Source of the DNA: Pecten maximus
Lineage: Eukaryota
Length of the DNA stretch: 64,000 nt
Assembly: GCF_902652985.1 (NCBI RefSeq)
Contig: NC_047024.1
Location: forward strand, 22,692,001-22,756,000
Reading direction: 5' to 3'
Every line of letters begins with the position of its first letter. The first letter of the stretch is position 1. The notes under the pieces were generated by a model. That model was not told the origin of the DNA and searched no databases. It worked only from the letters and a program-made list of their open reading frames with translations. Of the stretch, positions 98 to 56,239 are shown one piece after another. The position numbers and the translations under genes were made by a program.

Positions 98-1689
98 GGA
101 GGAATCTGGCTCCTGAACATCGTTGATTACAGTGTTGGCGGATTTCCCCTGTTGGTTGTTGGTATCATGGAACTCATTGCTGTTGGCTGGATTTATGGTA
201 AATATCCAAGATTTTAAACATAAAATGCAAAAAGAACTTTTCATCCTTTCAAAACATGAATTGTCTTGATTTTCACATCCATTTGTTAAAAATACTTTCT
301 TCCGATTTTTCCGAACAAATAAAATTATTTTTTTTGCATCATTTAGCAAGATGTTTTCATACTTTTTCTGAAATACTTCTTTTTCAATGAAGAAAGAAAA
401 GAAAAAAAGGGGAAAAAAGGAAGAAAGAAATTTGGCTGCGATATTTTAGACTCGGTGTTTTTAAACATTTATTCTAATATTCTTTTACAATATTAACGAA
501 CAAAGAATAATTTGTTTTAGTTGTTACATAACTTCACAATCAGGAACACACTAATGTATCTATGACGTCATTCTAACTACTTCCAGGTTACGATAATTTC
601 TCTGATAACATCCACGCCATGCTGGGAAGAAGACCAAGCAAATACTGGGAAATTTGCTGGAAGTTTGTTTCACCGTCTGTCATTGGCGTAAGTCATCATT
701 AACTTAAGCAATACTGTAAAATTAAGAGAATTTTAGATAATGAATATTTACTCAACTAATATTAATCACAAAACGAAATAAAACAGTGATTTCTGACATT
801 AAAAAGAAACCAAAAGAAAGCAAATATGAAGTAAATATATATTTGTACAGAGAATATTTTTTCATTGAAATTTACTACTGACTGACATTTGTTAAACCAA
901 ATTATGTTATATAACTAATCCTGTATGTGAGATTATTGGTAACACTTATCTTCACATGGTTCCTTTACGTATTGTTACATTTTTACAGATCACTATTATC
1001 CTGAACATTGTGCTGTACAGCCCACCAAGCATGGACGGTCAGTTATATCCCTCTTGGGCCAACGGTCTCGCCTGGCTTATCGCACTTTTCCCAATTATTG
1101 GAATTCCTGGATTATTCCTGTACAAATTCTGTAGAGAAGGTGGCTTAGAGGTAAGTTTGTTTTGCTTTTTAATAAAAGTTCAGTCATACGACTACAACAC
1201 CCTTCATTTACAATAAATCACCAAAACGTAGTCTTATTTTGCTGAAAATGTTGATATGTTGCTGTTCATCTAACAAAGCAATAAACAGTTTTTGGAATAT
1301 AAGATGTATAGATATTCATGACAACAAATGTCGTGAAACTGACCAAAACAAATAAGATATAAAAGTTGAAAAAAAAATCGCTTTTGACACGTACTAATTT
1401 AGTTTTACTATTTTTCCTCTAGTTGGTTAAAGAGAATATGAAGCCAGACCCAACTTTTGGACCCGCCATTCGTTACCCCAACGTTGATGATTCATTCACG
1501 GACATAGGAAACATTAATTCAAATGGTTACAATCCAGCGTTCGCAAAATCTATGGGAAGTTCTTTGTCAACAAGTACCAAGCTTACAGACGTTCCAAACC
1601 TAAACTTTACACCTGCGTCGTCAGTAATAACAATCCCGAGGTTATCAAAAACAACGCCCGAAAATGGACCAAATGAATCTCGTCTATAG
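98..1689 (+). CDS. SLC6/NSS amino-acid transporter paralogue A, 3' part only (TM9-TM12 and C-tail); exons 98-197, 587-687, 989-1150, 1423-1689
   Basis: GT-AG-bounded exons join in frame: [19 protein letters not shown]...GWIYG / [29 protein letters not shown] / ...[13 protein letters not shown] / ...ESRL*. Exon sizes 100/101/162 nt equal those of paralogue B. The 5' part lies upstream of the window. Confidence 0.95.
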
Positions 1690-4600: not shown

Positions 4601-6249
4601 CGAATTCCGAGAAAATCGTCTCCGCAATAAATGAATGATTGGTTTTTCAGATGCGTTAGTTTTTTTCGACATTTCTTGACACTACTCTAATTACTGTTAG
4701 GTTGGTGTTTGTCTGATGACGGAGTTGCTGCATTCTGCGCGCCTTTCTCTCACTCACAGAGTTATTGCCCTTTGTTGTACTGCTGAAATGTGTTTCCGTT
4801 CAGCAGAATTCTGATGCTCCTGTTGAACTAGTCACCTACTGGGTGTAGTTTGGTAACACTAATGAATGTGAAATAAATACTTATTTCTAAGCCCTATTAA
4901 TTGAACATCTGTATCTATTAAAGTCATTTTTATTTGTTCCCTTGAATGACCCTTATGGACACGTTAGGTTGTATTGGAAAGTGGCTGCTAATGTAAATTT
5001 AAACGAACAATTACGAATAATATCATGAGACCTACCATGCTTTGTAGTATTTTAGAAAAAAAATCAGCACTTCAGAAAAAAATTCAGGAAAACATCGGGT
5101 AATGTAGAAAAGTAATATTGTCTGTTCATCACACCACTTTGTCCCTCCTTGTGTAGCAATCGTTCAAAGCTATCCTCTATAGAACAAAATATCAACACAT
5201 AAATTCTCATTGAGCACATTTAATTTTAATTATATTAACTTTTATATAAAAGGTCGAATTCTGTTCCCTGATTTTAGCAATCGCCGCAAGCCATCCTCTA
5301 TCGTTTAAGGCGGTCTGAACCGAAATTCTCACTGATCATATTTAATTCTAATTGTGTTAGCTTTTATATCTTTAGTGAGAATATATGTGTGCGTCTTCTG
5401 AAGTAGTTCCCTTTATAAGTCTATATCTGTGTGTTTGTTCTATCGTACGATTATTTCACAAGTTCTAGACTAGAACTAAATTGGATATGCATTGTTTGGT
5501 TCATTGAATTTCTAAGTACACATTTATGTCGGCTCAGCAAATAATTACAATGCATATCCAGTCAACCGTAGTAAGTAATGGGCGTTGGTTCAGATAACAA
5601 CAGTTAAGTATTCATATCATACTCTCAGATAATATGTCTGGGGACATTTGTCAAATAAATGTGAGAAAGTATAATTTAATTGGAAACCACATAAAGACAA
5701 CAGCCATTAACCACAAGTGGCAAGGCAAGCGACATGAATTCATGAAAAAGCGCATGACGTGTTGGAATTCAAATAGTATTCAACAGACTGAGAATACCTA
5801 AATTTTAATTGACAGATGTTCAACAAAGCTTGGTCCAGTATAAAAAACATATTTCTATTTTGACCTCATACTGAAAACTTCAAAACAAACTATTGAATTC
5901 GATAAGCTAATGTTTTTTTTCGTAAATGCCAACGGTACGGAACAAGGTAGTGTGTGAAAAGCAAACAGTATATAATTAGGCACATGGAAAGACCTTCATT
6001 GTGGATTATAATTGGCTAGTATTATTAAACAAGGACACTTTTATCTAGGCCAACTAATAACACCAATCAAGACAATAACAGTGAAAAAATGACTTGAAGG
6101 TGGGGCTGGTTACCCAATATCCATAAAACTCTGGGGGTAAAAGGCTGAAACTGCAAACAGCAATAGTGCATGCGATCAATACAATGAAACCAGGTACGAT
6201 GTAGGGAAGGGACCAAAGATATTAAGACATGGGTAACGGGGAGGGACTG

Positions 6250-7325
6250 GTAATGTAGTTAAGGGGGTACAGGGGAAGAAATGGGAACCAAGGTAATGAA
6301 GTTAAGAGGGTAGAGGGGAAGAAATGGGAACCAAGGAAATGAAGTTAAGAGGGTATAGGGGAAACAAGGTAATGGAGTTAAGGGGGTACAGGGGAAGAAA
6401 TGAGAACCAAAGTAATGGAGTTAAGGGGGTACAGGGGAGGAATTCGGAACTAAGGTAATGAAGTTAAAGGGGTACAGGGGAAGAAATGGGAACTAAAGTA
6501 ATGGAGTTAAGGCGGTAGAGGGGAAGAAATGGGAACCAAAGTAATGGAGTTAAGGGGGTACAGGGGAAGAAATGGGAACCAAGGTAACGGAGTTAAGGGG
6601 GTACAGGGGAAGAAATGGGAACCAAGGTAACGGAGTTAAGGGGCACAGGGGAAGAAATGGGAACCAAAGTAATGGAGTTAAGGTGGTACAGGGGAAGAAA
6701 TGGGAACCAAAGTAATGGAGTTAACGGGGGTACAGGGGAAGAAATGGGAACCAAAGTAATGGAGTTAAGGGGGTACAGGGGAAGAAATGGGAACTAAGGT
6801 AATGGAGTTAAGGGGGTACAGGGGAAGAAATGGGAACCAAAGTAATGGAGTTAAGGTGGTACAAGGGAAGAAATGGGAACCAAGGTAAAGGAGTTAAGGG
6901 GGTACAGGAGAAGAAATGGGAACCAAGATAATGAAGTTAAGGGGGTACAGGGGAAGAAATGGGAACCAAAGTAATGGAGTTAAGGGGGAACAGGGGAAGA
7001 AATGGGAACCAAGGTAATGAAGTTAAGGGAGTACAGGGGAAGAAATGGGAACCAAGGTAATGGAGTTAAGTGGCTACAGGGGAAGAAATGGGAACCAAGA
7101 TAATGGAGTTAAGGGGGTACAGGGGAAGAAATGGGAACCAAGGTAAAGGAGTTAAGGGGGTACAGGGGAAGAAATGGGAACCACAGTAATGAAGTTAAGG
7201 GGGTATAGGGGAAGAAATGGGAACCAAGGTAATGAAGTTAAGGGGATACAGGGGAAGAAATGGGAACCAAGGTAACGGAGTTAAGGGGGTACAGGGGAAA
7301 ATGGGAACCAAGGTAATGAAGACAG
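6250..7325 (+). repeat. 43-bp G-rich minisatellite, ~24-25 copies
   Basis: Unit GGGAACCAAGGTAATGGAGTTAAGGGGGTACAGGGGAAGAAAT; successive starts at 6531, 6574, 6617. Confidence 0.97.
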
Positions 7326-12430: not shown

Positions 12431-15400
12431 TCAAACTTTGGACTCGCTTGGTTCCCTAGAACGGTTAGAGGAGAATATATACGTAGACCCTCCTATATTT
12501 CCGCTTCCGGGTATCCTGTTTACAGTCCTCACTGACGCCCCGATATTTGTGACGTCAGTACTATTTGTGCTCGTTGACATATTACTGCCCATGAGACGAG
12601 CGAATGCTGGGTTATAACCGACATCATTAGCAGCAAAGGTCACGTCATATTTCGGGAAAGAGTAATCTCCCTTGGTCTTGTCTGCTGGTCCCCACGTAGG
12701 CAATGGCTTCACGGAATCTTTCAGCACCTGCAATGATCAATAATATGAAACATGTATAAAATGAAGCAGCCATGCCCTTTCAAGGATATATATTATCTAG
12801 CGAAAGATAAGTTTTCTACTCCCAGCTGTATATACTACTTAAAATTTCGGAACCATGACAAAGCATGACTTTCATCGCCTGGAACTCGTCATCCGTGGTC
12901 ATTTGAGCTTCTATGAACCCACTTATGATATAAGTGAGTGGTATTAATTTGTATGTATAATAAGTTAATTTCTCGGTTTAAAATACTAATATACAACTCA
13001 TTTAAAATGCATATAATGATTCATTGGGATCCGGATGTTCAGATATAAGATGTGTCATTATGATCATGGCAGATTATTGTGCTGCTTATAGATGTCATTG
13101 TGATGCAGAGGTTTAGCCGCTTAGCCATAACCTCGGTCATTTGGTACAGAATAACAAGGGCTCAAAACTGAGACAATTCAAAAATTGTTCTTCTTTGTTA
13201 TTCAGTGTTAAAGTTACAGTGTTAGTTTTAAAGACACTTACAGTATAGACATGACGACTTACCATAAATCCACCATTGCGACAGAAGTAGTAAAGAGCAA
13301 GAACAACTATGGCGGCCACGGGGAACATAGCGATGAGCCAGCCAAGACTAACAGCCCAGCTTGGATATGTCACATTGTCGAGGTCTGGTTCCTTGAAGAA
13401 TATGATGTTCAGTATGATTGTCAGCTGTAAAATAAAAGAGGTTTGCCACTTTAGTATAAAGTCCCCTCTTCCGAGTATCGAAGGATCTAGTCGACTTAAA
13501 CAATAGAATAAGAGATAACAATTCGTTTACATCCGTATATCTCTCGCACATATTTATGTCGTATTGTTGTAAAACATTTCTGGAGCTATTATTTCGCGGT
13601 TGTCCCAGTTGGCCTTAGATCGTGGGTATTAAAGTTCGCTTAACCACGCCGTATAAAAATTTTGCAATAAATACTTCTGTTCCTTTTCTGTATATATTAA
13701 TATTTGTTGAGTATTTATTTTTCGCGCTATATTTGATATCCGAGAATATAGCAGAATTAAATCAGCAAATATCAGCAAATATCACCAAAAATACCGTAAT
13801 ATATAACTTTAATGACATACTTTTTCTATCGATATCATGCTGCATCATTATCACAATATAAGATTATGCGACTCTATCTATAGTATAGTACTAATATTTC
13901 TTTTGTGATTTATCCAAAATAGGTAATTATGTTATACGTTTGCAAAAAAAAAAATATGAATTTCTCTTCTATGACAGAAAAGTACTTACAAATACAACAA
14001 ATGGTGACACCCATTTCCAGCAGATCTCCCAATACTTGTTAGGCCGAATTCCAAGCATGGTATTGATATTTTCGGAAAATTCGTTATAACCTGCAAATTA
14101 AAAAGCAAACCATTGAATTTATTTTGTATCCTTTATACATGTGGGTAACGTGAAATGCCTTCCGTACTGCAGAAGTGCAAATTTCATGTACATGTGTTCA
14201 AATTATGATTTCTATATTTTGTAGTTTGTTTTAGTGTTTATGTTGTTACGTAGGCGAAGGCCTATAATCAGAGTAATGAGATCCATCTTTTAGTATATTT
14301 TTCCTGGCTTGTTCACGATATAATTGAAATTTTATCTATAAAAAAGAAATATTGGATGTACCAATTCGTTTACATATAAGAGCTTTACGCCATCAATAGT
14401 TTACAGACTTTTGCTAGGCACGTACCATATATCCTTGTTATGATGAGTAACTCCATCAATCCGACCACCAACAGAGGGAAACCACCGACACTGTAATCCA
14501 CCAGGTTCAGCATCCATATTCCTCCCTGTAACAATCAATAGAAGGGTTACTATAGCACGAAGGAGGACGAAGCATGGCTTGTTTATGCCGTGAAAATATC
14601 TTCTTTATTTAAGAATAGGATGAAATAGTAATTTATATTGAACACAAGTATGACTAGCATTATTTGAAATTTAACTTCAGAAAAATGTCGAGAAACTGAT
14701 TGCATGAATACAAACTACATGTATATAAATACTGATTATAAATGTACACAACAGCTATATAATCTTAAAAAGGAATATTTTAATTGATGAACACTATTGT
14801 AATAGATAAGGTTAGAAAACTTACGCTACATATCATAGGGAGGCCAAGCAGGAAAAAGATGATACAGCCGACGACACGGAAAATGATATTGTTCCGGCTG
14901 GTCTTCAGAATGGGGAACTCGTCAGACACGGAACTGAACACACATTCGACGATCGAAAACTGAAACAAAATCAGCCCAATTATACACAACGCGGAAGTCC
15001 TGGTTGATAAGTATCAGGAAATATAAGTATATATTACATTACTGCTGCTATTTTAAGTAACAGATAAACAGATACAATTCATTTGAGATGGGACTAATTC
15101 AATACTATTTCAGTGCTTGTCAACGTCAACTGGTAATACCGTGTTTAAATGTCATCGATGTTTTGAAATTTATAGTTCACGTTTTCTTTTGAGTTGTAAA
15201 TTAGTAAGTAATTACCTGAGATCCGAATCCAAGAGTGGCCATCATGATGAAGAAAAAGACTGACCACATTGGGGCGACGGGCATTCTGGCTAGAGCTTCC
15301 GGGTACACAATGAAGGCCAATCCAGGTCCTGTAGAGACAAGGGAACAATAGTACATAAATACAATGGTATGATTTCCAAAAACCTCCTTTACTGTAACTC

Positions 15401-18400
15401 TTACTGTATGCCGCACAACTAATAAAGGATACATGGCCTATTTAAAGTCACAATAACAAACAGTATTAACGGGTATCTAACCCGGATGTAATATTGTATC
15501 CGAAAGTATTTATGACGCAACATATCTCTACAATGTTTTCTTTTATGAATGAAGGCGTTCGAATCTTGGTCAGATAACATATTATCTAAGAGTGATTGAC
15601 CTAAATTCAATACCATATTGAAATCCACTTACCATCGTCGACGACCTTTGAGACATCTACATTCTTTTCCGTGGCGATGAAACCAAGGACTGAGAAGATG
15701 ACGAGACCAGCGAACACACTTGTACCACAGTTGATACAGCAGACGATGAGTGCGTCACGGTAACAATTGTTGTTGAACTTGTTGTAACTGGACATGGCGA
15801 TCAGGCCACCGGAGCATGCGCTGAGAGAGTAGAAGATCTGGGTGGCTGCGTCACTCCAGACACGGGGGTCAAGTAAACGTTCAAAGTCAGGTTCTAGGTA
15901 GTAGAGAATACCTTTAGAGGCGCCGGGCAAGGTCACTCCACGGACGAACAGGACTGTCAGCATCACATAGGGGAAAATGGCGGTGAAATACACAACCTGT
16001 AGACAAACAATATTGGAACTTTAAAAATGTCTTTTCATCGCCTTTCATATAATATTTCACATTAAATTAATTTCTTTTAAATACAGCGTGAAAGAGGATA
16101 TATTCAACCAATCATACTATGCCTTACCTTTCCAAGTGACTGAATTCCTTTCAACAGTACCAAACCAACAACGAGCCAGGCGATGAAAAGGCAAATTACC
16201 AGATGCCACTCAATTGTTCCGAAGTCGTCAATGCTTTCAGACTGATTCAGGACGTTCCGTCTAAAATGTAACCAGAGCATCCATTAGAAAATAGTGTTCA
16301 CTACTGCACAATTTGAGGTGCCCTATTACTTTATCTATCGAGGAGCCTGTCTGAAATGTGTCAGCCCAACGCCATTTTGAAAGTCGAAAGATCAATGATG
16401 TTAAATGGTACATGGTTTTAATGTGTTAAAATATTAGAAAAACAAGATAAAATTGTAATACATGTGAATGATTCTTTCTCCAATTTAAGTAAATTCACCA
16501 TATGATGATTAAAACACATACGTTATATCATTTAGAAAGCGAACTTGAGCTGTGTGAAATTTACGACTATTGAATGCAATATGAAAATGATTGAACACAT
16601 GATATTTAATTACCTGTAATATTCTTCAGTGGGCGTCTTGAAAATGGATGGACTTGGAAGGATTGTTGAATTGGAATCTGCAATATCAAAAGATGTATTG
16701 TTATAAATTAGTTGAATTGGAATCCTATATATTAACAGCATATTTATTGTTATATATCAGAACTTGACAGGTTTCATGAAGGGTAACAAATAGAATATCA
16801 ATTTCAGATTTAACATACTTGATGTGTTACTCTTGGCAACATGGTGATCAAAGGGCAGACAACTGTTGGTGTTCCAGGTGTTGTCACATGACTCCCAGGG
16901 CAGAACATCAGTGAAGGATTTAAACAGGTAGTAGAGGACATGGGAAATGACGACATTGTAATATAGACCAATCAACAACGACACGATTACCATGGCGTAT
17001 CCAAGTCCTGCAAATACAAGGTCATGGTCAGATTTAATAAACTAATAGAACAACTAAACCGATTTTTACATCATCAACGTAGAGAATATGATGAACACAA
17101 GTGTATTGTTAAGGGAAAAGTAGATATATATTTTAATGTACGTACCTTTAAATAAGGGGCTAAGCTTCCAGATGGCGATGGGTCCAAGGCTAGCGTACTG
17201 TCCCATAACTAACTCCATGTAGAACAAGGGCAGACCAACAAGTGCCAACATCAGAGTGTAGGGAATCAGGAAGGCACCTTAAAATATAATCAAGGTAAAT
17301 ATGGTCAGAAAACATACCACTTGGTAAAGACGACAGAAAAACACAAAAAAAATTACCTTTTTTATACTGATGATATTATTTTACAATCACTTATATGATC
17401 ATGTGACAACTGACATGTAGGAATGGGGGAATTCAGCAGCAATTATAGAACAAAAATAGCACAGAGAAAGTTTCATTTGAAGTTTCACCTCTTCAGGTGA
17501 TCTTCCGGGGAATTGAAAGTCTGTTGGAAATACATGTATATGTCTACACCCGTTTATTTTGATTGTATCGGTAATAATCAGCATTCCTAGTTTATGATTA
17601 AAGGAATATGGTCCTATGAACAAAACTTAAAGAGAATATTTACATTGTAATTGCGATCACAGGGACTGATCCCAAGTACGTGGTATATTTGCCAAGACAT
17701 GTTAAGATAATTACAGCCGCCTTAGCGTTCAGCCGATTTCGATTGCCATCGCAAATGCAATTGAAGCACATGTACTGCACACGGCCTCACGCTTTGTTTA
17801 CATTCCCGCTGCTTCAGTGTGTCAATTTATTAAATTTGTATCATCACTTGTTAACACACAGCTGTCGTTTTGATAAAACGTGTAATACAATAAAGTGGAT
17901 TCGATTTAACTATGACGTCAAACCGTCAAGCTGTGTCAATTGTACGTAATGCATGGCTTTGTCATTTGTGTTGTCAAGGAAGAGACACTTCAAAAACGTT
18001 AAGCCGCTATTTAACATACGTATTCCCGCGGTTAGATACGGAGGCTGGGAATGAACCGTTTAGAAAATTGATCATATATCATAGAGCTCATATTTTACCT
18101 CAAACAGAAGTAAATAATATATATCAGGTTAGAGTGGAATACGTTCTATACAGGAAACTGTCAGAGAAATTTGAGATATAAAAATTCAGTGTATTAGACT
18201 TAATGTAATGACGTATAAAAATCAATATTCTAAACATGAAATATTGATGTCGCGCTGTACACACAACGCAAGTGTGTTACTGATTAATAGATCATATCTT
18301 TCACTTATATAGCTACATAATTCAAAATTCTGAGAGATTACATGTTTCCTCTCACAAAATGTCACCAGAAGCAACATCAACCCATCATTTACCTTACGCG

Positions 18401-38492: not shown

Positions 38493-39145
38493 AGGCTGCG
38501 GTGGCCGCGGTGGCCAAGTTGGCCCGACATTTTATCACTAGCCCTCCACCTCTTGGTTGTGAGTTCGAAACCAACTAGGGGCAGTTGCCAGGTACTGAAC
38601 GTAGGCCGATGGTTTAACTCAGGGTACTCTGGCTTTCCTACACCTCCAAGACATGGCACGTCCTTAAATGACAACTCTGGCTTTCCTACACCTCCAAAAC
38701 ATGGCACGTCCTTAAATGATAACTCTGGCTTTCCTACACCTCCAAGACATGGCACGTCCTTAAATGATAACTCTGGCTTTCCTACACCTCCAAGACATGG
38801 CACGTCCTTAAATGACAACTCTGGCTTTCCTACACCTCCAAAACATGGCACGTCCTTAAATGATAACTCTGGCTTTATTCCTACACCTCCAAAACATGGC
38901 ACGTGCTTAAATGATAACTCTGGCTTTATTCCTACACCTCCAAAACATGGCAAGTCCTCAAATGATAACTCTGGCTTTATTCCTACACCTCCAAAACATG
39001 GCATGTCCTCAAATGATAACTCTGGCTTTATTCCTACACCTCCAAAACATGGCACGTCCTTAAATGACAACTCTGGCTTTCCTACACCTCCAAAACATGG
39101 CACGTCCTTAAATGACCCTGGCTATTAATAGGACGTTTTAAACGA
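38493..39145 (+). mobile_element. tRNA-headed V-like SINE with an internal 10x tandem amplification (48/51-bp unit, 38626-39115)
   Basis: Head GCGGTGGCCG..GAGTTCGAAACC; GGGTACTCTGGCTTTCC; unit ACTCTGGCTTT(ATT)CCTACACCTCCAAAACATGGCACGTCCTTAAATGA(C/T)A; tail GACCCTGGCTATTAATAGGACGTT shared with S1. Confidence 0.85.
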
Positions 39146-42869: not shown

Positions 42870-43280
42870 TGGAAATGTCTGTAAGACATAAAAGCCCCCG
42901 CTACAACTGAAACAGTTGATGATTTTCTATTTTTAACAACAGTGACTTTGGCTTTGACCTTGGAATCTGAAACAAAATCATATCAGAAGTTTACCTATAC
43001 TTGACTATTTTTTTTATAAAAGTTTGATGAAAATCTGTCAGAGAATGAAGTTGCTAGGTGTTAAATTGAATCGGGACGGGACGGGCAGGACGGGCAGGGC
43101 AGGACGGGCAGACGGGCAGGGCAGGGCAGGACAGGCAGGACGGGCAGGGCAGGACGGGCAGGACGGGCAGGGCAGGACGGGCAGGACGGGCAGGACGGGC
43201 AGGGCAGGACGGGCAGGACGGGACATGGGGCATAAGAAAAGTTATTACCGGATATGATTTCAATCAATCAGAGGGTAATA
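42870..43280 (+). mobile_element. HINE/DINE-like element with an expanded G-rich microsatellite (GGGCA/GGAC, 43075-43224)
   Basis: AAATGTCTGTAAGACATAAAAGCCCCCG start, TTTGACCTTG and AAGTTTGATGAAAATC motifs, then the microsatellite. This accounts for the low-complexity ORFs here. Confidence 0.6.
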
Positions 43281-44362
43281 AATGGCAGGATGCTAGCTTT
43301 TTATCCTCCATCACCTGTATATGACGCAAGTAACCAAAAGTATATACATAATTTACATAGTTAACGTTTTCGGTACTAACCCTAGCTGTGATTCTGACTT
43401 ACGTCAGTAAAGTGTGTACGGTAATACACACACAGACTGCGCACTAGTTATTTTACAACGTGGCCATGTGTGTTGGATGTTGTAATTAACCTGTTTGTAA
43501 ACAATCAATGAAGTCTGGTCTTAACATTCCGGATATATATATAGCTTCATGACGTCATTCCGATAAGTGTTAGGGATGTTTTATATTATGCTTGTATTCG
43601 TCTGGGGAAAAGTACTGGGCATTAATATCTTATGAAGGTGTTTTCAAAACAAACGGCGCAAATTCTAATTAACAAGTATGCGTTATTACATAATCAATGA
43701 TAGATTGATAATAATTATATAACTTCTTTCAAAAAAACTTCACTAAAATCTATTAAGAAAACATAGAAAAGACGTTTTTAATGTATTGGTACACTTCAAA
43801 ACAATTTTTCCTTGCAAAATCACAATAATATGATAGTCACCTAAAATATCTCTCCTACGGACATGTAAGAAAATCTAGCAAAGAAATACAGTACATGTTT
43901 CTATATAACGAAATCATTTAGAATTGAAATGGACAAGCTAAACTTTCACAAAAAATTCGCAAAATGCACCTAAATACAGACATTTTTCTCCAACAATATC
44001 ACTCGATCAATATAATTTTGTACATGAGAAAGCAACGAGTCCGATGTAGTGTTGAATCTACGTCCGATGTAGTAAAAGGACATAAAAACGGCCGTTCTGG
44101 GGAGGTTCCATGGATTAGAATAAAGTTGCTAGAAAGAAGAGAACCATGTTATGTGGGCAGCGGTACAACTACGTTCTCCCTACCTTCAGGGCAGGTTTAA
44201 AGTTTGACGTTACCGTCGTGGAAAAAGGTAACATCATAGGCTTCCCGTAGCACTCTGATGATTTAAGTTAGGGGAAGGGAAATAACTCCAACAGATGCTA
44301 GCGCTACATTCTATCAACAGACATTAGTGCGCGTGCCTGTCTTTGAATGCTGTAGTATCTTC

Positions 44363-44525
44363 CACAGGCGCTTGCATAGAAAATGCGATTTTCAAAAAAA
44401 AAAAAAAAAAAAAAATGATATGACAGTGGTATGTGTAATCTGTTATTTAACAGATTACACATACCACTGTCATATCAATTTTTTTTTTTTTTTTGAAAAT
44501 CGCATTTCCTATGCAAGCGCCTGTG
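44363..44525. mobile_element. Young 163-bp foldback MITE with 8-bp TSD (P/hAT-type)
   Basis: CACAGGCGCTTGCATAG...CTATGCAAGCGCCTGTG, almost entirely palindromic; TSD GTATCTTC at 44355-44362 and 44526-44533. Confidence 0.93.
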
Positions 44526-45184
44526 GTATCTTCCCGTGGCCGTGCGGAACAGATGCCGACTGTAGTGCAATGTTCATGTTGAACACCAAGATCGTCCTCA
44601 AAGGGGCGAATGCTCAACTTAAGACCAACAGCTAAGGAACCAATCAGGCTTAGGATTGTTTTTTTGTGGAAAAATAATTTGCTTCCGATTTTTCACACAA
44701 AAAAAAGAGAAGAAATTAATTGTTGCATCTATGGAGTTTAGAAAATGTTTTATCTGTTTTAGTGATGAAGAAAATAGTTTGATTCTTGCTTCAGTAAAGA
44801 GCAAAAGAACCCAGAAAGAAGAAAATTGCTGAATGAGGTCCGAAACAAAACATAATGTCGGTGACACAGGGACAGGAAACACATCTATCCTCTCCAATAT
44901 ATACTTGTATTATGACGTCTGATACAAAATATACAGGGATTTGACACACGCATAGATCCTCTCCCATAGGTAAATATATAACCCTTGTTAATGAAATCTG
45001 ATACCTGAAGTATGTCGGTGAAAAAGGCGACGAATATATAATTATATCAATCTCCTCCAAAACTTATATACTGCTTTAATGATGCCTGATACAAATTACG
45101 ATGTCAGCGACACAGGGACTTGATACACGTATCGACCTCCTCACAAACATATACAGGCTTCATTATGTGTTTGTTTAATGTACC

Positions 45185-45472
45185 TGTTGAAGGCGAATGC
45201 CGTTTAAACTTTGTGCACTACGTCATCAATTTCAGCGGACATCTAGACAAACGCCCACTGAGTATATATCAAACCTATGATAAGTATCGTAACTTGCCGG
45301 ATACATGGATCTTGTTTCTGAAGTGACGCATAAAAAAATCGGCTTTGATTTAGTATCCTGCCCGCGCAGGGACTCGAACCAGCGACCTCTCAGTGTCTAG
45401 GAGTCCTTAGGCTAGAGGGAAATTCCCGGCTAACCTCAGTTAGTTAGGTGGCCTTGTACTCTCTACTCAACA
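45185..45472 (-). mobile_element. TG..CA-bounded 288-bp unit containing a tRNA-like sequence (candidate Ajax-type solo LTR)
   Basis: Ends TGTTGA...TCAACA (6-bp IR). Minus strand at 45359-45395 reads GAGGTCGCTGGTTCGAGTCCCTGCGCGGGCA (T-arm/B box). No TSD found. Confidence 0.45.
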
Positions 45473-45639
45473 TATAATGAACATGATTAAATGAAAATTG
45501 ATTATGTCCTTGAACAATTAACTCGGCGACTATTTGCATTTAAAAGAACGCTAATTAAAGATAACAAAGAAATCATCACAAATAAACACGCATCCGTAGG
45601 CTGGCGTACACGTTCTTCTCTACTCTGGACGGAGACAAT

Positions 45640-45740
45640 AGTATGACGTCATGATACTGATGACGAAAGGTCATTTGTGACGTCACGTTCTTGTTGCTAT
45701 GCTGCTTAGCAATAGGCAAAGGCGGAGATGATTAGTCTCT
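45640..45740 (+). promoter_or_regulatory. Putative promoter of the compact gene
   Basis: Two perfect CRE palindromes TGACGTCA (45644-45651, 45678-45685), a half-site at 45661, RFX-like GTTGCTATG..CTTAGCAA, and Inr-like TTAGTC ~50 nt before the ATG. Confidence 0.45.
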
Positions 45741-45782
45741 CCCCAATTATCTACTTCTTATCTTAATTTTTGGATTACCACA

Positions 45783-46902
45783 ATGGATATCAAGATTTTC
45801 TTGATATTTGTGGTAATTCTGAACGCCATGCAGCAAGGCCCTGCTGCTTATCGGGACCTTAAGTGGTAAGTTTGGGACATTTTCTGTGATTTTTGTTTCT
45901 ACGTTGATTATACATGTATATCACGGTACCTAGATGCATTGATGGCACCCTTAAATTGTGTCGCGACATTTCACCTCAACTTTGTCACTTTATTTCTGTA
46001 GCGTGGAGCCCGAGCCAGGACATACCAAAAGATTGTTGTATTATTTCACCTCAAGAGAAATTGAGCAAGTCTGCCCAACGCAAGTCGAGCTGATGTGGGT
46101 AAGTATTGCATTCAATTAAGATACAGATTGATGTTGAAACGCATTGTAACTTGAAATGTATACATGGCTTGTAGTCGCGCTTATGCGTTTCGTGTAAATT
46201 TTATAGACGTATTTCCTTATCGAAGTTTGAATAATTCCTAATACCAGGAACATCGGATGGCTTAGAATTATCGAGGTTGATTATAACTTTTATTTGTTTT
46301 AGAGAATCGGAAATGATGTATTCCGGACGTTTCTGTGTGGTGTTATAACACTGATGTTGGTTTACACGTACGTGTGTGCACCGTCGATTGGAAACCGCGC
46401 CAAGAAGAGATGGACAACCAATGTTTGCATGTTCCAAGCATGGATAACTCGTAAGTAATATTGATATTCGTAACCACTTTCCCCAGTTCGTTTCGTTCAT
46501 AGGACAATAACGGTAAGATCCATTCGGCGCGTAATAATTTACGATATGTTAATTGTTGTGAACATTGCAATGTTTGAAGATGTGTTATAACACACATTAT
46601 CTGTTTCTACAGGCCGTTCCCTCTGTCGTTTCTGCGGAACTTCTCCATGCCAGGCCAAGAGAACATCCTGGAAGCGCTTCAGACTCCGTATCAAGAATGT
46701 GACTGATTTCGAGGAGCGATCCAATGCCATGAGGTTGTTCAGCCTCGGACTGGAGCTGTCCGTCGACCTGACAAAAGAACTTCCCCGGGATGAGCTGTAC
46801 TGGGCTAGGAAATACTGCGATCAATTCGAGGAGGACCACATGGTTCTATTCCCGCTGTGTATCCAGCGTCAAATCAATGACTGGTACCCATTGCCTCACT
46901 AG
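45783..46902 (+). CDS. Uncharacterised 205-aa predicted type I membrane protein with Cys-rich, P2X7-ballast/KolX-like cytoplasmic tail; exons 45783-45865, 46002-46098, 46303-46450, 46613-46902
   Basis: All three donors are GTAAGT; acceptors are polypyrimidine+YAG; phases 2,0,1 match; 618 nt with no internal stop. Protein: MDIKIFLIFVVILNAMQQGPAAYRDLKCVEPEPGHTKRLLYYFTSREIEQVCPTQVELMWRIGNDVFRTFLCGVITLMLVYTYVCAPSIGNRAKKRWTTNVCMFQAWITRRSLCRFCGTSPCQAKRTSWKRFRLRIKNVTDFEERSNAMRLFSLGLELSVDLTKELPRDELYWARKYCDQFEEDHMVLFPLCIQRQINDWYPLPH. Confidence 0.7.
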
Positions 46903-48811
46903 GTATGTACCCTGTCCCTCACAAATATACCCCTTTGTCCCTTGTCGGATAGGGAGTCCCCTTACGTACCCCTTCACCGGACTAAGTAATCTTTTACTCG
47001 CAAAATCATAACATGCCCATCACTAGGTAGGTAATTAAAAGTTCATTCAAATTGAAATTAATAATTGGAAATATATGTAACACAACATGAATAATCTGAT
47101 CTGAAATTCACTTTCATCAATATGAAAACTATATCACGTGACAAATATATCCTGTTTACGAGAGCGCAACTGCTGAACATGAACGTCAGTATTACGCTTT
47201 AATCTATTATTTCAATTTTTAAACGATTTTCTTCCAGATTTCTTGCAGTTTTTGGCGAATGTCGATGATGGAACCGAAGTGGCCGTGTTGACGTCATCGA
47301 TTGGTCGCAACCACGATTTATTTTATTCCTTTTCTGATAAATGAGAAATAGTGACCTAGAGATATTAATGTTGTTTTCGTTACTTAGGTACATGTATGTT
47401 TTACCTTGTAAAATTGTTTATTTTGTAGAGAGGAACATTGTACACAGATGACAAGCCGATTATAACTATTCTATGTTGGCCAGATACAAGTATATAATGT
47501 TTCGTAATGTTTCTATGGTAACCATTCACACGTGGTATAATAAAATGTCTGAACCTGACTCAACTGTTTCAGTTATATTTTTGTAAACGTCTGCCACACA
47601 TATACACATGTTCCTTGAAGTCTAATACAAATTATGATGTCGGCGTCACAAGGTCTGGACACACTTACGGATCATATCCGACATATATGTGTTTTTCGGC
47701 ATAGCTGTATAATTTTCTTTTGGCCCCGGATATGACGCGACAGGTGGCGTTACTGGTCAAGATGAAGTATGTGATTGGTCAATGTAGCGGTAAAGGCAAA
47801 ATGCAGATATGCAGTTAAAGACGAAACAAAATTAAGATTGAATGCAAGCTGAATAAGTGGATGTATCTATTCAAATGACACATTAATAAAATCATATTCC
47901 TGATTCAAATGCAGTCTAATTACCACCAAAAATGATTCAAACTGATATAATTTTGTTATCCGTGCTGAAACTGCGCATTTATTAATTAGTTCGTTAATTT
48001 ATCTCACCAGCAGTTTTACATTATAACCACCAGCATTAAAACTATCTCGTTTATCTTTTTTAAAGATATTTCTTGTTATGATTAAGTCTGATACAAAATA
48101 CAATGTCGGTGACACAGGGACTGGACACACGCATAGATCCGATCCCATATGCATGCATGTGTAATTGTATACTTGTTTAAAGAAATCTGATATAACGATA
48201 GTATGTCGGTGAAAAAGGCGCTGAACACATGCATCGATTTCCTCCAAAACATATACTTGTTTAATGAAATCTGATATAAATCATTATGTCGGCGTCGCAG
48301 GTTTGGGCACACTTACGGATTCTGTCCGACATATATATTCTTTCTGAATGAAGCCCGATACAAAATATAATGTCGAGGACGCGGGGATTGGACAGACGTA
48401 TTGATCCTGTCCGATATACATAAACTTGCTGAATGAAGTCTGATACAAAATAAAATTATCGGTGAAACAGTGACTGAGCACACACAAATCGATCCCCTCA
48501 AACATATAGATACCAAGTATGAAGTCGGTGACACAGGGGCTGGACACATGTCGATCCTCCACCACACATAAATACTTGTTTAATGAAATCTGATGGAAAT
48601 AATTACGTCGGCAGCACAGGGTCTGCAAACATGCATCGCTTCTCTCCCACATAGTATACCTGAAAATATGTTTGAGGGAAAGGATGCATGTATCCAGCCC
48701 CTGTGTCACCGAAATCATATTTTGCATCAGACTTTATTAATCGTGTATGTACACATGTGGGAGATGATTGATGCGTGTGTCGAAATTTTGACGATCCTCT
48801 CTCGCACATAT

Positions 48812-49378
48812 ATTTAAGGATTGAATCTTGATTTGGTCGATTTCATGGGGTCATGAATTGAGTTGCTCTTGAGACAAATTTAATGAACTGCGAAGCAGTT
48901 CATGTTGAATTTGTCTCACCAAAATCGACCAAATCAAGATTCAATCCTTATATTTCAATTGGTTTTTTTTTCGAATAAAAAAGTTGGTCTAGATATTAAT
49001 GTCTCGAAGCTTGTGCAAGTCCAAATGAGGAAAAGCCCGAGGAGTTCCGGATTGTGCATGTCTAGTCGGTCGAGTAAAATAGTCCGCCATTTTAGGATTA
49101 AAAAACAGCATTATTTTGTCAAAATAGAAGTATTTAGCATATCTGGTTTTTCCTAAAATACAAGAATACATTATAAATTTGATAATTTTAATAATCATTC
49201 CATGTTTATAACAACAATATAGAAAAAGTTAAATCGTTCCGCGGAAGGATTTTGTCTCTCCCCTTAACCATGTATTCATACGCACTGATCAGTGTTAATC
49301 TGGTCAAATCCATGAGCAAATGAAACAGATTAAGTTTGGAAGTTTAATTGAGTACAACTTGAGTAGAAATTGAAATAT
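48812..49378. mobile_element. Hairpin + short-IR non-autonomous element (Crypton-like), copy 2, inserted in the satellite
   Basis: Palindrome 48812-48955 capped by GCGAAGC (48890-48896); perfect IR ATATTTCAATT 48950-48960 / AATTGAAATAT 49368-49378; satellite resumes on both sides. Confidence 0.7.
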
Positions 49379-50561
49379 ATATACTTGTTTAATGAAGTCT
49401 GATAGAAAGCATTATGTCGACAGCACAGGGTCTGCAAACACAATCGATTCTCTCCAACATATTATACTTGTATATATGTTTGAGAGAATCGGTGTGTGGG
49501 TCTCGCCCCTGTGACATTATATCAGACCTCATAAAACAAGTATATATCTTATCTATATGTATGGAAGGGGATTGATGCATATATCTAAAACCTGTGCCAC
49601 CGACCTAATATTGGTAAAAGACTTCATATTACATACATATATGTACATTGTATGTGGGAGAAGATATAAGCGTGTGTCCAGCCCCTGTGACACATTTTGT
49701 ATCGGACTTTCTTTTACAAAATACATATGTAGGTGAGAGAGGATGTATGTCTGTGTCCAGCCCCTGTGCCGCCGACAATATAATTTGTATCAGACTACAT
49801 TAAAACAAGTATACATACATGTGGATGAGTATAGAAGAGTGTGTCAAGCCCCAGTGCCGCCGACATTATTATCTATGCTGAAAATAGTCAACATCTGTTC
49901 ACTAGCGGTTATCTCCCCTATATCAGGATACGGAAAAATGGGAAGTGGTTTTGTCTTCCAAGCTGGTATTGATATTATATTATACACATAGTGTTATTTT
50001 ATATAGTATCTATATCTGTATCTATGTATATTTCTTTTTCTATAGCTTGATCTATATGTATACCTAATTTTAGATATTCGCAAAAGGAACAAAAGAACAT
50101 TATGAGGAGCATATTGGTTTCTGTATCGTTTGGAAGATAACGAAACCAAACATGGTAACGAGATCACCCATTTTCACCGTACCGAACCGGTGGTAGGTAA
50201 CTATGGTTACCGACCGCCAACATGGCCGATTTACCTACTTCCGGTTCTGTACAGTGATTTTAAAGCATTTATTATGAGGGAATGGGTTGTGACATATACC
50301 AATATTGATTTAGAATTGAGTACTTCTAGAAACAGAAGTTTAATAAAACTAGTAGATACAAAAATCAGCCGTTAAAAAAACTGGATATATGCAATTCAAA
50401 CATGATAGTGATAATTTAGTGATAAATTAACGTTTGTGTAGAGAGTCAATGACTGCGGCACTAGCATGTCAAATTCTGATAGAGTGCTGTCCCCTTGCTT
50501 ATTCAACATGGCGCCGACTTCTCGGCCACTGTACCGCGTGGACTGGCAAATTGTTAGCCAT

Positions 50562-51740
50562 GTACTCAAGGAAGTCTGAAAGAGTGAAGAAATTGTCAAG
50601 AACATTGGGGGAACCAAAATCGGTGCTCTCCACAGACATATTCATGGCGGAAGGTGTGGTATCGCAATTGGACGATTGCTCAGAATGTGAGGCTGAGGTT
50701 CAGGGCGAGAAAAATGTTGTTCTCGAAGTCAAATCGCCCAATATCAAGACATTACCGCATGTAAATGATCATGATGGTATCAGGGTTACTCCGGGTAGCG
50801 GTCGGGGGCGTGGCTACATACCCCGCTACCACAAACGAAAGTGGGATTGCTTAATAGATTAAGTCAGGCTAGTGAACATTCGGAACTAGATCATTGCGAG
50901 GCCGAGTTGGCTACGATACAGTTAGAAGAAAAAAAGATGCGTTTGAGAAGGGAAATAGATGCAACTAGGCAACGACTGTTGGGTTTCCAGCTCCCGACCC
51001 CTAACGGGATTCCTCTGGGGGCCCTCCCCAGCGAAGCGTGTCAACATACCTGCCACCAGCATTACAGGCGCATAATTCTAACAACGCGTCCGACAATGTT
51101 CAGCGACAACCCCCATCCAACAATGACAGCGAGTATTTCTTGCAAAACAATTCCTAGGAATCTCGGCCAGGTCGAACATTCAGATAAAAAGACCAAAACA
51201 TATAAAATTGTTGATTTCCTTTGGGATGAGCCTAGTGTCAAGGATAATGATATTCAAGATACATTGACAATCGAGGCAGGGCCGCAACACGAAACCAGAT
51301 TTACAAAATATATCAGTCGAACAATGGGGTTATGGGGCCGTGTCTATTCTCCTTCATATGCTGGAACAGAAGGACATCAATGTCACAGGTGTTAATCAAT
51401 ATCTGAAGAACATGCAACGGACCTTTCGCTTCTTTCACAGATACACGCGCCCCAGTGTGCTGTGTTATGATAAAGAATTCAGGGAGGCCCAAAACACGAG
51501 GATTTGGCATGGAACGCCTCCAGAAGGGATATATAGGACTTCCAGCTGGTCCAGAAACCGATGAAGTCGATGTCCGAGGCACCGACAGCGTCGAAGCACC
51601 GCAGAGGCCCATATCTACCCGGCGGGAAAAAAGAGATCTGTTGTAGGTTTAATATGGAAGCCTGTGTTTAAGAACTGTCGGTTGGCTCATAACTGTAGTC
51701 TATGTTTTGGGGACTACCCTGATTTAAAACACCCATAAAA
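50562..51740 (+). pseudogene. Ngaro gag-like ORF1 (frameshifted)
   Basis: ORF fragments containing YKIVDFL, VLCYDKEFREAQ and a terminal Cys/His knuckle (ICCRFN...C...NCRLAHNCSLCFG) typical of DIRS/Ngaro gag. Confidence 0.65.
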
Positions 51741-51744
51741 AAAA

Positions 51745-53440
51745 CTAGAGCCGGTCCCTGGGCCGTCTCAGGGTAACTGGGCCGAGGAGGTTTTCATTGC
51801 CAGCCCCCTGAAATGGACAGAATGGAAGGAGCTTTTACCACATGGTGATGTAGATAGAGACTATATTCTTCATGGTGTCAAATATGGTTTTAAGTTGTTG
51901 GACTGTGATCTTTCACAGATACCGGTGATGGAAACAAACAGCTACTCTTCATGTTCACAGTATTTTGATTTGGTTGAGCAACAGATACAGTATGAGCTTA
52001 GGCAGGGTAACTACAAAATAACTGAGACAACACCGCGTATAATAAGTGTTCTTTGGGCGATACCAAAATCAGAAACAAAAATCAGACTAATACATGATGC
52101 TAGTCAGCCAAGACAAAAATCGTTAAATCACTATAGTTTGGCGAAATCAAACTGCTCGTGTAGTTACATGGATATAAGGGAGGCAATTAAGCATGTCACA
52201 CCTGGGTGTTTCTTAGCCAAGTTCGATTTGTGCAGTGCATATCGATCAGTGCCGATTAGTCCCATGAATTATTCCGCAACAGGCCTAAAGTGGACATTTT
52301 CAGGGCACAATGCCCCCACATATATGTTTGATTGTCGCCTGCCGTTCGGAGATTCACGAAGCCCATAGATTTTTCAGAGACTAAGTGCAGCGGTGTGCCG
52401 TATCCTGAAACACAAATTTGGTTTTACCGTTATTTCGTACCTTGATGATTTTCTCATTCTGGAAAAATCAGAGGAGCGGAGCGTTGCCATTTGGCACTTA
52501 CGACATTACTCCGCGTGTTACGACAGCTCGGTTTCTCGATCAACTGGTCCAAGCTTGTCGGCCCGACCACCCGTTTGGTGTTTCTAGGTATAGCGATTGA
52601 CACGGTAAAAATGTCTAGAATGTCCCGAGGACACACTGTGCGCGTTCACAAACCTGCTTCAGTCTTATGCCGAAAAGAAACGCGCCAGCAAAGGTCAGCT
52701 CGAAACATTGTGTGGGAAACTCAGCTGGGCGTCGCAGGTTATCTGTGGGGGCAGGGCTTTTCTCCGTAGGATGATTTCATTAAAAGACTCTATACAATTG
52801 CGAAAGCAAAAAGTCTTACTGTCTTCCAACTTTCGAAAAGGTGGCTTGCGTTTCTGAAAACATTTAATGGTAGCTGTAGCATCCTGGACTCCAAATCAGT
52901 TACGTCGTTACAAACGGATGCATGTAACATGGGTGCAGGGCTTACTATCATGACGATTATATGTACACTAACTGGCCTCTTGATATGCCACCTATGTGCG
53001 ACCAACATATAAATGTGAAGGAACTAGTGGCGATATTCTTGGCAGTGTGTCGCTGGTGTGAACATTTTCGGGACCGAAAAGTCATTATATACATCGACAA
53101 GAAGTCAGCAGCCTCGTGGGTTAATAAGGGCTTATCCCGGTGTGAAGTTAGCATGCATTTGTTGCGCATCCTTTTCTGGTTTTGTGCTTATTTTAACATC
53201 AGCATAAAGTGTGTATACCTGTCAGGTGCGCGTAACATTAGAGCAGACAGGAGCTCTCGATTACACGAACCAAACACGTTAAGTAAACTGTATGACCTGC
53301 TACCATCATTGTTCTTGCTACCGTTTTCTGCAGAACATCTTGTTTACCACATGTCGTACCGTTTTCTCTTCTTCAGATGGAATTCAAGAATTGGTACTGC
53401 TATCTACGGCGGAAACCCTGAAAAGAAATGCGTGGGCTGA
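51745..53440 (+). pseudogene. Ngaro reverse transcriptase / RNase H (stops and frameshifts)
   Basis: RT motifs IRLIHDAS, KFDLCSAYR, RLPFG, YLDD (~52438), FLGIAID; RNase H motifs QTDA, HINVKELVAI, NIRADRSSR. In-frame TAG at 52366-52368. Confidence 0.9.
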
Positions 53441-54327
53441 TTCGACCAGCGCCACGTACGCCACGCACCTCAAGTGCTACCACAGCTTTTGCGCAGCTAT
53501 GAACTATGATCCGGTGCCAGCGTCGTCACAAATGCTTCAAGTGTATATCGCGTATTTGACAACAGTGAATGGTTTGAAATATCAGTCGATTAGACAATAC
53601 TTACTATACTACAATAGTGACTCACATCCATAAGGCGTCTGGTTTGGCGGACCCTTTTGAGGGCGGCTATATATATAAAGTGACTCAGGAGTTAAAAGGT
53701 TTAAAGCGGGTTGTAGGGATAGCGCAATCCACAGTGGATACAATAACTCCGCAGTTACTGAAGTCAATCTATGGGAGTCTATCTTGGTTATGCCTCAGTG
53801 ATTTTTCTTTCTGGTATGCATGTCTAGCAGCATTCTTCGGCTTGCTCCGTCCTGGTAACATCACAGTTCGTGGACCTTTTAACCAATCAAATGATTTACG
53901 GCGAGTGGGTGCTATTTTGTATTCGTGCCGGTATATACTATCCTCGTTAAAGACCAAGACAATTCAATTTAGGGAGAGGGAAGTAGAAGTCCCTCTGCCC
54001 CGTATAATGTCCGATAGTGGGTTGTGCCCTGCACGTGCTCTTCAAACATTGTTAGAGAAATCACCACGGGCAGACCCTTTGGGTCCACTTTTTCTGAATG
54101 ACAGTGACGGGGCGCTGAGTTACAAGGAATTCAGGAACAAACTGTCTTTATGTTTTAATTCAGTCGGAATCAACAATTGTAACTATAAAGGTCACTCATT
54201 ACGGCGGGGAGGACCCTCCTGGCTCTCCAAGCTGGGCGTCCCTATTGACATGATCAAAACATTGGGGCTCTGGGCCAGTGACGCAGTATACCGTATATTC
54301 CCGATTCATGCAGTCAATCATAATTAA
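53385..54327 (+). pseudogene. Ngaro tyrosine recombinase (frameshifted)
   Basis: N-terminal SAM-like region (AWADSTSATY...LKYQSIRQYL), AFFGLLRPGN, KTKT, CPARAL, GHSLRRGG, LGLWASDAVYR. Confidence 0.9.
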
Positions 54328-56239
54328 CATAAGATTACAGTTACGCAATCTTTTTGAAATGATACTTTTTTAAAAGAAAATTTTAAACATTACTCCTGGA
54401 CTTATTTTGTATTTGTTCAACAATGGAATTGTTATACTATTTGTTTATTAAAATTTTGCTCAGCTAGAATAATGTATATCTAGTCTTTTATATCTAAGCA
54501 AAGTGATAATTTAGTGATAAATTAATGTTTGTGTAGAGAGTCTATGACTTCGGCCCTAGCATGTCAGATTCTGATAGAATGATGTCCCCTTGCTTATTTC
54601 AACATGGCGCCGAGTCCTCGGCCAATGTACCGCGTGGTCTGGCAAATCCCACCCACCCTCCCCTGTCAATTTTATTGGCATTGGCCTCTCATCCTAACCC
54701 CACAGTTGTATTACTGTCGATAGTTTTAGTATTGCTTACTGCTCGGGGGATATTACATTACATCTTAATTGTATTTACTATTTGTATTATATTTCATCCA
54801 TTTATTTTGTATTTGTTCAACAATGGAATTGTTATACTGTTTGTTTATTAAAATTTTGCCCAGCTAGATTAATGTATATCTAGTCTTTTATATCAAAGCA
54901 AATTAAATAATTATAGATAATCTAAGACTATACATAAAGTAAAACAAATCTGACAAACAATCGAGTATCACATGTACACACTGTGGGGAAAAATCAGACA
55001 TGTAGCATCATTACAGAGATTTTCATGGGTTTTTGTTTTTTTGCATATTTCTGTTTCGCCGTCTTCGATTACGGTATTGTCATTAGTCTTTACAACTAAT
55101 CATTTTTTGGTGTTCAATCGATACGAGATCTACAACTTCTTAATATTACTGTGGGTTGGTAGAACCGACATTTGTGCAATATACCTGGACTTATACCTAC
55201 AGGAACATAAAAAGATATATGCAATATGTTCCATATCACAAATTAATCAGCAGAATATCTTTGCTTTGAGGGCACTTTATGGACTATATCAAAAGCAATC
55301 GAAATTACAACCGCAAATAGGTTTCTACGTCATACTGTAGGCTATTGGAACGAACACCTATTTCCACTTGTCGTAAGTTACGTCAATAATGTGTAAAATG
55401 GTTGTTTTTTCTGAAGCCGACGTTATAGTGCTGCCTAAATGAAGTGTACTGTCGAAGGCCGCCATCAGACACCATACCTACTCACATTATAAACCAGTTG
55501 TTTCACTTTTTTTATGAACCAAAATAGCCAAGGGTGTGAATAATGTGAAAGAAGCATGTTGTGACGAACATGTTCAGATAAGCGTCCCTAACCTACTTAG
55601 ACAATACATTGGGAGACATTTTATTATCTACCGCGATTATGTACCCGATGTTTTCATTATAATTCCGATCCTCATTTTGAAATCCCTTTTGTCATGTCTG
55701 TGATCAACCTTTTATTGCCAGTATTTAATCATTAAAGCTCCGATTTCAAGTAGACTCGTTACGTCTCCAATGTATGAACTGCTTATTCGGTACAATTTCT
55801 GGGACGCTTATATTTGATTATTAACGTGTAATATGACTATAACTATTTTTTTTAACCAGTTCGTTTGATAATAATGACTTTCAGATTAGTACCGTTTACC
55901 ATTTTAGTTTGTCGTTATTCTTTCTGTAAACGTACTTCTAATCTGGTGATTGACCCTACCGGACTAAAATTCTCAATTTTAGTAATAATCATTTATACGG
56001 CATTAACATTTAAACCGTTCAAATATTCTGATTAATTTTACCGTATGCATTTATCACCCAACTGACAGAGTCAATTGAGTCAAAAAAAATAAATGCATTA
56101 GAAATTGAGACAAAATGATCTCAAGTTGTTCTTGATTTTCCAATGGTTTCGGTGTAAATGTAACTTTACATTATGTTAGCTTATTATTTTACTGATTTTT
56201 AATTAGAATTACATTTTTGGTGAAGAGTTGGTAACTTGA

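Follow-up and report, generated by a model that had tools for sequence, protein, structure and literature searches.

The window (the whole 64,000-nt stretch of Pecten maximus contig NC_047024.1 that was analysed) contains, at 45166-47600, a compact block with a spliced gene, bordered on both sides by tandem repeats. The features of the block are listed below.

45354..45467 (no strand): remnant of an old dispersed repeat, inherited by the young copies (genome search and alignment)
45644..45685 (no strand): double CRE, promoter of the whole family, with TGACGTCA at 45644 and 45678, conserved
45783..45865 (+): coding exon 1; its hydrophobic N-terminus is predicted to be a signal peptide or anchor; the spliced CDS corresponds to P0001
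46002..46098 (+): coding exon 2; encodes what is predicted to be a short ectodomain, with two conserved residues (C28, C52)
46303..46450 (+): coding exon 3; a transmembrane helix (about 62-85) and one more helix after it are predicted
46613..46902 (+): coding exon 4 and stop, compact Cys domain; C114, C117, C122 and C192 invariant in 19/19; dN/dS 0.19
46903..47237 (+): intron directly 3' of the stop codon; GT..AG joint in contigs of X1, X2 and X3
47238..47560 (+, 3' end approximate): non-coding last exon with AATAAA at 47539-47544; contigs reach 47495-47538

The four coding exons encode a 205-aa protein identical to P0001, which is labelled by its source as an uncharacterised P. maximus protein. 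All four GT-AG introns (three coding, and 46903-47237) were joined across in RNA-type contigs (X1-X4, from four runs of three studies; the RNA type was guessed and is supported by the joins across GT..AG introns), and the X1 and X2 pieces over exon 4 showed 0-1 letter differences from the window. The original prediction, made from the window alone, had pointed to splice-like sites after the stop codon and to a double-CRE promoter. The former (donor 46903, acceptor AG 47236-47237) bound a truly spliced intron; the latter is kept in 12/12 aligned promoters, old and young (first site in 12/12; the core TGACGTC of the second also in 12/12). The AATAAA region is likewise conserved among copies. Scans for tRNAs and Rfam families gave no match within the block, and no transposase or RT was found in it, as had been predicted.

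Hydropathy and a structure model suggest that the protein opens with a hydrophobic N-terminus, continues through a short loop in which two Cys are conserved and a transmembrane helix, and closes with a C-terminal domain. The predicted product is a small membrane protein. It would consist of a signal or anchor, a 40-aa disulfide-bonded outer loop, the transmembrane helix and a cytoplasmic four-Cys metal-binding domain. Because the double CRE is conserved, the product is likely a cAMP/stress-responsive signalling component, a function assigned by prediction from sequence. Pfam, PDB sequence and ESM Atlas searches assigned no family to the protein. The full-length model was poor (pLDDT 52), and its Foldseek matches were discarded on account of this low confidence. 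The model of the C-terminal domain aligned end to end, with weak resemblance, on residues 476-585 of 6u9v, so that a likeness to the P2X7 ballast/KolX fold is suggested weakly and is unproven. In a comparison with P2X7 ballast/ZCD/Kolobok KolX (PF20478; PDB 6u9v; PMC7016195), the N-terminal CxxC cluster and the terminal P-x-C-x4-I-x3-[FY]-P spacing are common to both, and the P2X7 ballast also lies behind a transmembrane helix. P2X7 ballast/KolX has seven or eight Zn-binding Cys, whereas scallop exon 4 has four invariant ones. A second-look structural alignment against five chains gave no match, 19 family members had no Pfam match, hhalign against PF20478 gave probabilities of 0.3% and under, and family loci were absent from the 41 PF20478 matches in the genome. 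Those canonical ballast/KolX-type matches (at least 41; L081-L105) include several near-identical ones on different contigs, which suggests young Kolobok-type elements.

A search of the block against the genome, which the original prediction had proposed as a check, gave 78 DNA matches, and the block is therefore multi-copy rather than a single-copy locus; the protein gave 127 exon matches. The 659 kb of fetched sequence contained 41 exon-4 loci, of which 21 were classed as young (at least 80% identical) and 20 as older, and a few protein-match loci lie outside it. The young copies, 12-20% diverged, occupy seven sites over five large contigs: C2:45.9, C3:7.8, C10:17.7 (C10a), C10:18.3 (C10b), C10:22.7 (the window), C14:34.9-35.5 and C16:29.7 Mb. 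The older subfamily is scattered over many contigs in compact pieces of gene size, whose homology extends only over about -190 to +1300/2600 of the ATG; its C6 copies L060, L070, L071 and L077 have a GC donor at intron 2 and altered flanks of the Cys domain. At C14:34.89-35.50 Mb (L036-L052, L064), the young gene was amplified within ~18-kb blocks that also carry an LRR-7TM receptor gene with a long ORF (850 aa); arrays are inverted there, and truncated copies of the gene occur.

Family members come from four scallop genera (Pecten, Argopecten, Ylistrum and Mizuhopecten). Among 1.84 billion representatives, searching with a profile returned 15 matches, and the nine looked up were six named scallop records and three short unnamed ones; viral contigs and viral folds, also searched, yielded no homolog. 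No published description of the gene family or of the repeat was found in the openly accessible literature searched. The family is uncharacterised and appears to be scallop-only.

For selection analysis 38 exon chains were built, and 16 intact CDS (11 young, 5 old) were retained after incomplete, broken or mis-projected chains had been left out. Over the young between-site pairs (n=48, not independent), mean dS was 0.15, and dN/dS came to 0.19 in the C-terminal domain as against 0.55 in the N-terminal half. The gene is spliced, conserved, expressed and under purifying selection. In the tree the window, C2, C3, C16, C14 and C10a+b were unresolved at the base of the young clade (counted as five lineages), a topology that points to the seven young sites having arisen in a star-like burst.

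The repeats that border the block, with the elements inserted in them, were mapped as follows.

44825..45144 (+): 5' array, forward arm, 4 units of 82-88 bp (nhmmer map); collinear with the start of the 3' array
45154..45165 (-): reverse-arm stub, 12 bp, centre and rest of the arm deleted here (junction comparison with 9 other copies)
47597..48652 (+): 3' array, forward arm, in which 8 units were detected; a high-copy insert interrupts it
47692..48080 (no strand): high-copy dispersed element within the 3' array; 87-89% copies elsewhere, very high depth, many loose ends
48653..48747 (-): a first, 16-bp centre of the palindrome, with a single reverse unit (nhmmer map, junction comparison)
48811..49378 (no strand): second dispersed element within the array; 90% copy at C6:40.51 Mb, high depth
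49380..49874 (-): one forward unit, the canonical centre of the palindrome (49461-49476) and a reverse arm of 5 units; the whole unit has its ragged end here

The repeat unit is 82-88 bp long, with a mean identity of 68% among units. A full array consists of a forward arm, an AT-rich centre of 16-26 bp and a reverse arm, and 13 centres were listed. Judged on the native sequences alone, the centres fold as long DNA hairpins. Genome-wide, the repeat was confined to young-gene loci in 73/73 BLAST and 40/40 pattern matches, and two further searches placed 8/8 and 33/36 matches there, the three outliers having no array; these counts are lower bounds, as diverged arrays may be missed. A repeat unit lay within 4 kb of 16/21 young exon-4 loci and of 0/20 old ones, the five young copies with no unit nearby being in the C14 cluster (four) and on C636 (one). 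The same genome searches, again as lower bounds, placed every array at a gene locus, and none had a transposase next to it. On these counts the repeat array is private to the young subfamily. Two other roles considered for the repeat were rejected: zinc-finger coding, as unit lengths vary out of frame, and a recombination signal, as breakpoints are not in one phase.

The original prediction had the cassette splitting a satellite and ending in LTR-like letters. TGTGT (45166-45170), ACACA (47596-47600) and AATAAA (47539-47544) are present as it gave them. TGTGT was found in 2/10 of the 5' junctions of copies and ACACA in 2/13 of the 3' junctions, the two words occur 106 and 115 times in the window, and ACACA is part of the unit with which the downstream array starts; LTR-like ends were not confirmed. 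Positions 45154-45165 are the stub of a unit in the opposite orientation. The reverse arm joins the 5' end of the block in one phase at C2, C10a, C10b and C14, the window retaining only those 12 bp; 45166 is thus a true junction, but an internal one that the copies inherited. Since the junction between array and gene is inherited, the block did not split an array, and the repeat is part of what travelled rather than a pre-existing target.

On the 3' side, the junction with the array at 47592/47593 is common only to the window and two C3 copies, and at C10a, C10b and C16 the sequence runs on into other shared sequence. Alignment of the 5' and 3' arrays of the window scored 230 in register and 138-187 when shifted, with the third unit type shared, and the two are copies of one array. 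Because they are in register, the unit is array-gene-array, at about 44825-49874; the window unit later gained two inserts, both dispersed elements in the array. The relation of array and block is nearly the reverse of that originally proposed, the arrays being the direct repeats and the block the internal part.

A giant solo LTR with a spliced accessory gene, one of the two forms that had been suggested for the block, would explain the TG..CA letters of the window copy, the promoter and poly(A) signal inside it and its many copies, and one C14 copy does lie 1.4 kb downstream of gag-pol-type ORFs. This reading is nevertheless very improbable. The end letters are kept at few junctions and no TSD was seen; paired copies around gag-pol were looked for and none was found. 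The spacers between paired copies at C2, C3, C10a and C10b are mutually unrelated and have no ORF of at least 170 aa, the C14 spacer holds the LRR-GPCR, and the pol beside the C14 copy is absent from its sister, with no second block beyond pol among the matches listed. Four spliced introns, and homologs in four scallop genera but none in viral contigs, also argue against an LTR.

At C10a the unit forms 5.7-kb tandem multimers. The C10a-type unit recurs at 95% identity in the independent contig L106 and is therefore no assembly artefact. L106 (1-3582) comes from a metagenome collection, and its C10a-type unit may mean that the sampled source has many copies of the tandem cluster. The order is array-gene at C10b, C16, C2 and C14, gene-array at C3, and both at the window and C10a; the presence of both orders is as expected from a tandem or circular donor. 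Beyond dispersed repeats, no outer flank was common to different sites. In the search for an empty site, as had been suggested, neither window flank occurred whole outside the window. The unit ends are ragged, with 5' starts at different unit positions and 3' ends that differ between sites. On the 5' side, homology breaks off within the array or where the array starts at 5/7 young sites, and two 5' breakpoints (C3 and the first C10a copy) lie outside the array. One contig of X2 (depth 4, 30 letters on the short side) joins 44932 to 49376, from 5' to 3' array with the gene skipped; no fetched locus accounts for this junction, which hints weakly at a gene-less allele.

No clear TSD, TIR or conserved TG..CA was seen at the young-site ends, and the junction comparison agreed with the original prediction that there is no clean TSD. 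The window unit has a 7-bp direct repeat that overlaps both of its outer junctions, its left copy also fitting the repeat consensus; repeats of 7 nt or more occur in about 1.8% of random pairs, and the comparison covered 8 junction pairs. At the other sites the repeats at the junctions measure 3-6 nt, a length that random pairs also give. Two further candidates for a TSD were discarded, a 9-bp repeat at the earlier-proposed block ends, which belongs to the repeat units, and a 6-nt repeat near the block, which lies within repeat units and is offset from the junction.

We favour, with about even confidence, the reading that the block is the gene part of a 5-6-kb host-gene duplicon whose private palindromic array aids its spread. 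Linkage of array and gene, the inherited junction, both orders, multimers, ragged ends, kept introns and promoter, and purifying selection were directly observed. In the founder, the private array would have become fused upstream of an expressed host gene. A tandem (array-gene)n or a circle, spreading as DNA, would have been the donor, because two sites hold more than one unit and because the only shared sequence upstream of the array is spacer from the previous gene. Pieces or circles would be released by recombination between the direct-repeat arrays or by breakage at the cruciform-capable centre, since 5/7 sites end in arrays 5'; the palindrome is likely a fragile, recombining site that supplies breaks. 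Ordinary repair would then place the pieces elsewhere in one short burst, with no transposon enzyme, and local tandem duplication, deletions and TE insertions would follow. Against this duplicon reading, no site has a clean circular permutation with one junction, and ragged ends may stem from later deletions and insertions. The self-contained mobile expression unit of the original prediction survives as a compact unit that has moved around the genome, with its boundaries and the LTR idea wrong.

The array could have been a passenger, having arisen once beside the founder of the young subfamily and been carried by the ordinary duplication that also scattered the older copies. The old subfamily is spread over many contigs with an array at none of its 20 loci; the array was therefore not required for dispersal and may only ride along. 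Units that are only 68% alike on average also make the array older than the burst. This is a rather unlikely alternative: homology at the 5/7 sites ends inside or at the start of the array, never reaching a shared outer flank, and arrays that are also downstream, inverted and duplicated point to rearrangement at the array.

Somewhat less probable still is an eroded non-autonomous composite transposon, in which the arrays are foldback-type elements and the gene was moved in trans either by a pair of them or by a mechanism like that of KolobokP or Helitrons; the non-autonomous element with cargo of the original prediction keeps this small share of belief, with no element ends found. Array-gene-array and (array-gene)n mirror the LTDR-INT-LTDR multimers of KolobokP (PMC9587614), and the inverted arms of tandem repeats mirror foldbacks (PMC4079207). 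The burst-like tree, the 7-bp repeat that spans both outer junctions and the weak fold likeness to the ballast domain, which PMC9587614 traces to Kolobok KolX, would also fit. Against a transposon stand the lack of arrays away from gene loci and of a transposase beside any, junction repeats at the random level elsewhere with a left 7-mer copy that fits the repeat consensus, and the differing 5' starts and 3' ends; purifying selection on terminal branches fits host genes. A bolder version has about the same low probability: a new kind of composite mobile unit with palindromic satellite arrays as terminal direct repeats, which as array-gene-array monomers and multimers carries a host-selected, transposon-derived (KolX/ballast-like) membrane-protein gene and, having no enzyme of its own, moves via circles that are cut in the middle of the palindrome. 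If true, it would be a miniature parallel to P2X7.

Helitrons and Helentrons have fixed termini (TC...CTRR with a hairpin, or subterminal inverted repeats). No Helitron CTRR end was seen by eye at the aligned 3' ends, which differ between sites. KolobokP, composite-like transposons of which occur in molluscs, shares with the scallop unit the direct-repeat/internal/direct-repeat layout and multimers sharing one repeat (window and C10a) (PMC9587614). The scallop unit differs in having no DDD/E transposase, His-Me nuclease, 450/660-bp LTDR with TIRs, 3-5-bp TSD or dispersed solo repeats. Foldbacks such as Tetris likewise have long inverted arms of tandem repeats and no ORF; unlike Tetris, the scallop array shows no clear 8-10-bp TSD or defined outer TIR domain and never occurs away from the gene family (PMC4079207).

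Human core duplicons such as GOLGA8 and Morpheus/NPIP likewise have a gene-bearing core, mosaic flanks and tandem and dispersed copies, and palindromic GOLGA8 cores promote rearrangement (PMC6920530). The scallop copies share this feature, a gene-bearing core common to all with unrelated flanks. In contrast to the human duplicons, the scallop core is only 5-6 kb, is spread over five chromosome-scale contigs, and has a palindrome that is a tandem-repeat array private to it, not a piece of a large segmental duplication. Duplication through circular DNA also yields duplicates that lie far apart, keep their introns, differ in block order and lack TE ends (PMC7450558). The scallop case differs in showing no single clean A-B/C-D to B-A/D-C change and in being recurrent, small and repeat-linked. 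The vasa gene of tilapia was reportedly duplicated through circular DNA intermediates. The scallop structure is real and unusual, not categorically new: a small gene duplicon with a private palindromic repeat.

The locus bears on how intact intron-bearing genes scatter across chromosomes with no transposon. Its built-in comparison, of young copies with a private palindrome and old copies with none, makes the role of the palindromic repeat in dispersal testable. It also defines an unstudied, expressed, scallop-wide family of predicted membrane proteins that has a conserved double-CRE promoter and a domain which is well predicted in the model and resembles no solved fold clearly.

Other features of the window were recorded. 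A degenerate tyrosine-recombinase retrotransposon (50407-54912), with broken RT/RNase H/integrase frames, begins 530 bp after the unit and is not common to other copies. Its layout, which is Ngaro-like, includes split direct repeats (50407-50551 with 54502-54647, 92%; 54402-54511 with 54802-54912, 94%). Exons of two convergent SLC6/SNF transporter genes were located at 896-1216 (+) and at 13137-13526 and 15607-16020 (-). An almost perfect inverted repeat of 165 bp (44362-44526), which contains poly(A)/poly(T) stretches, lies 300 bp left of the unit; its miRNA matches were below threshold. Minisatellites of 43, 48 and 9-23 bp occupy 6249-7318, 38626-39115 and 43074-43224, respectively, the 48-bp one having expanded within a common ~200-bp dispersed repeat.
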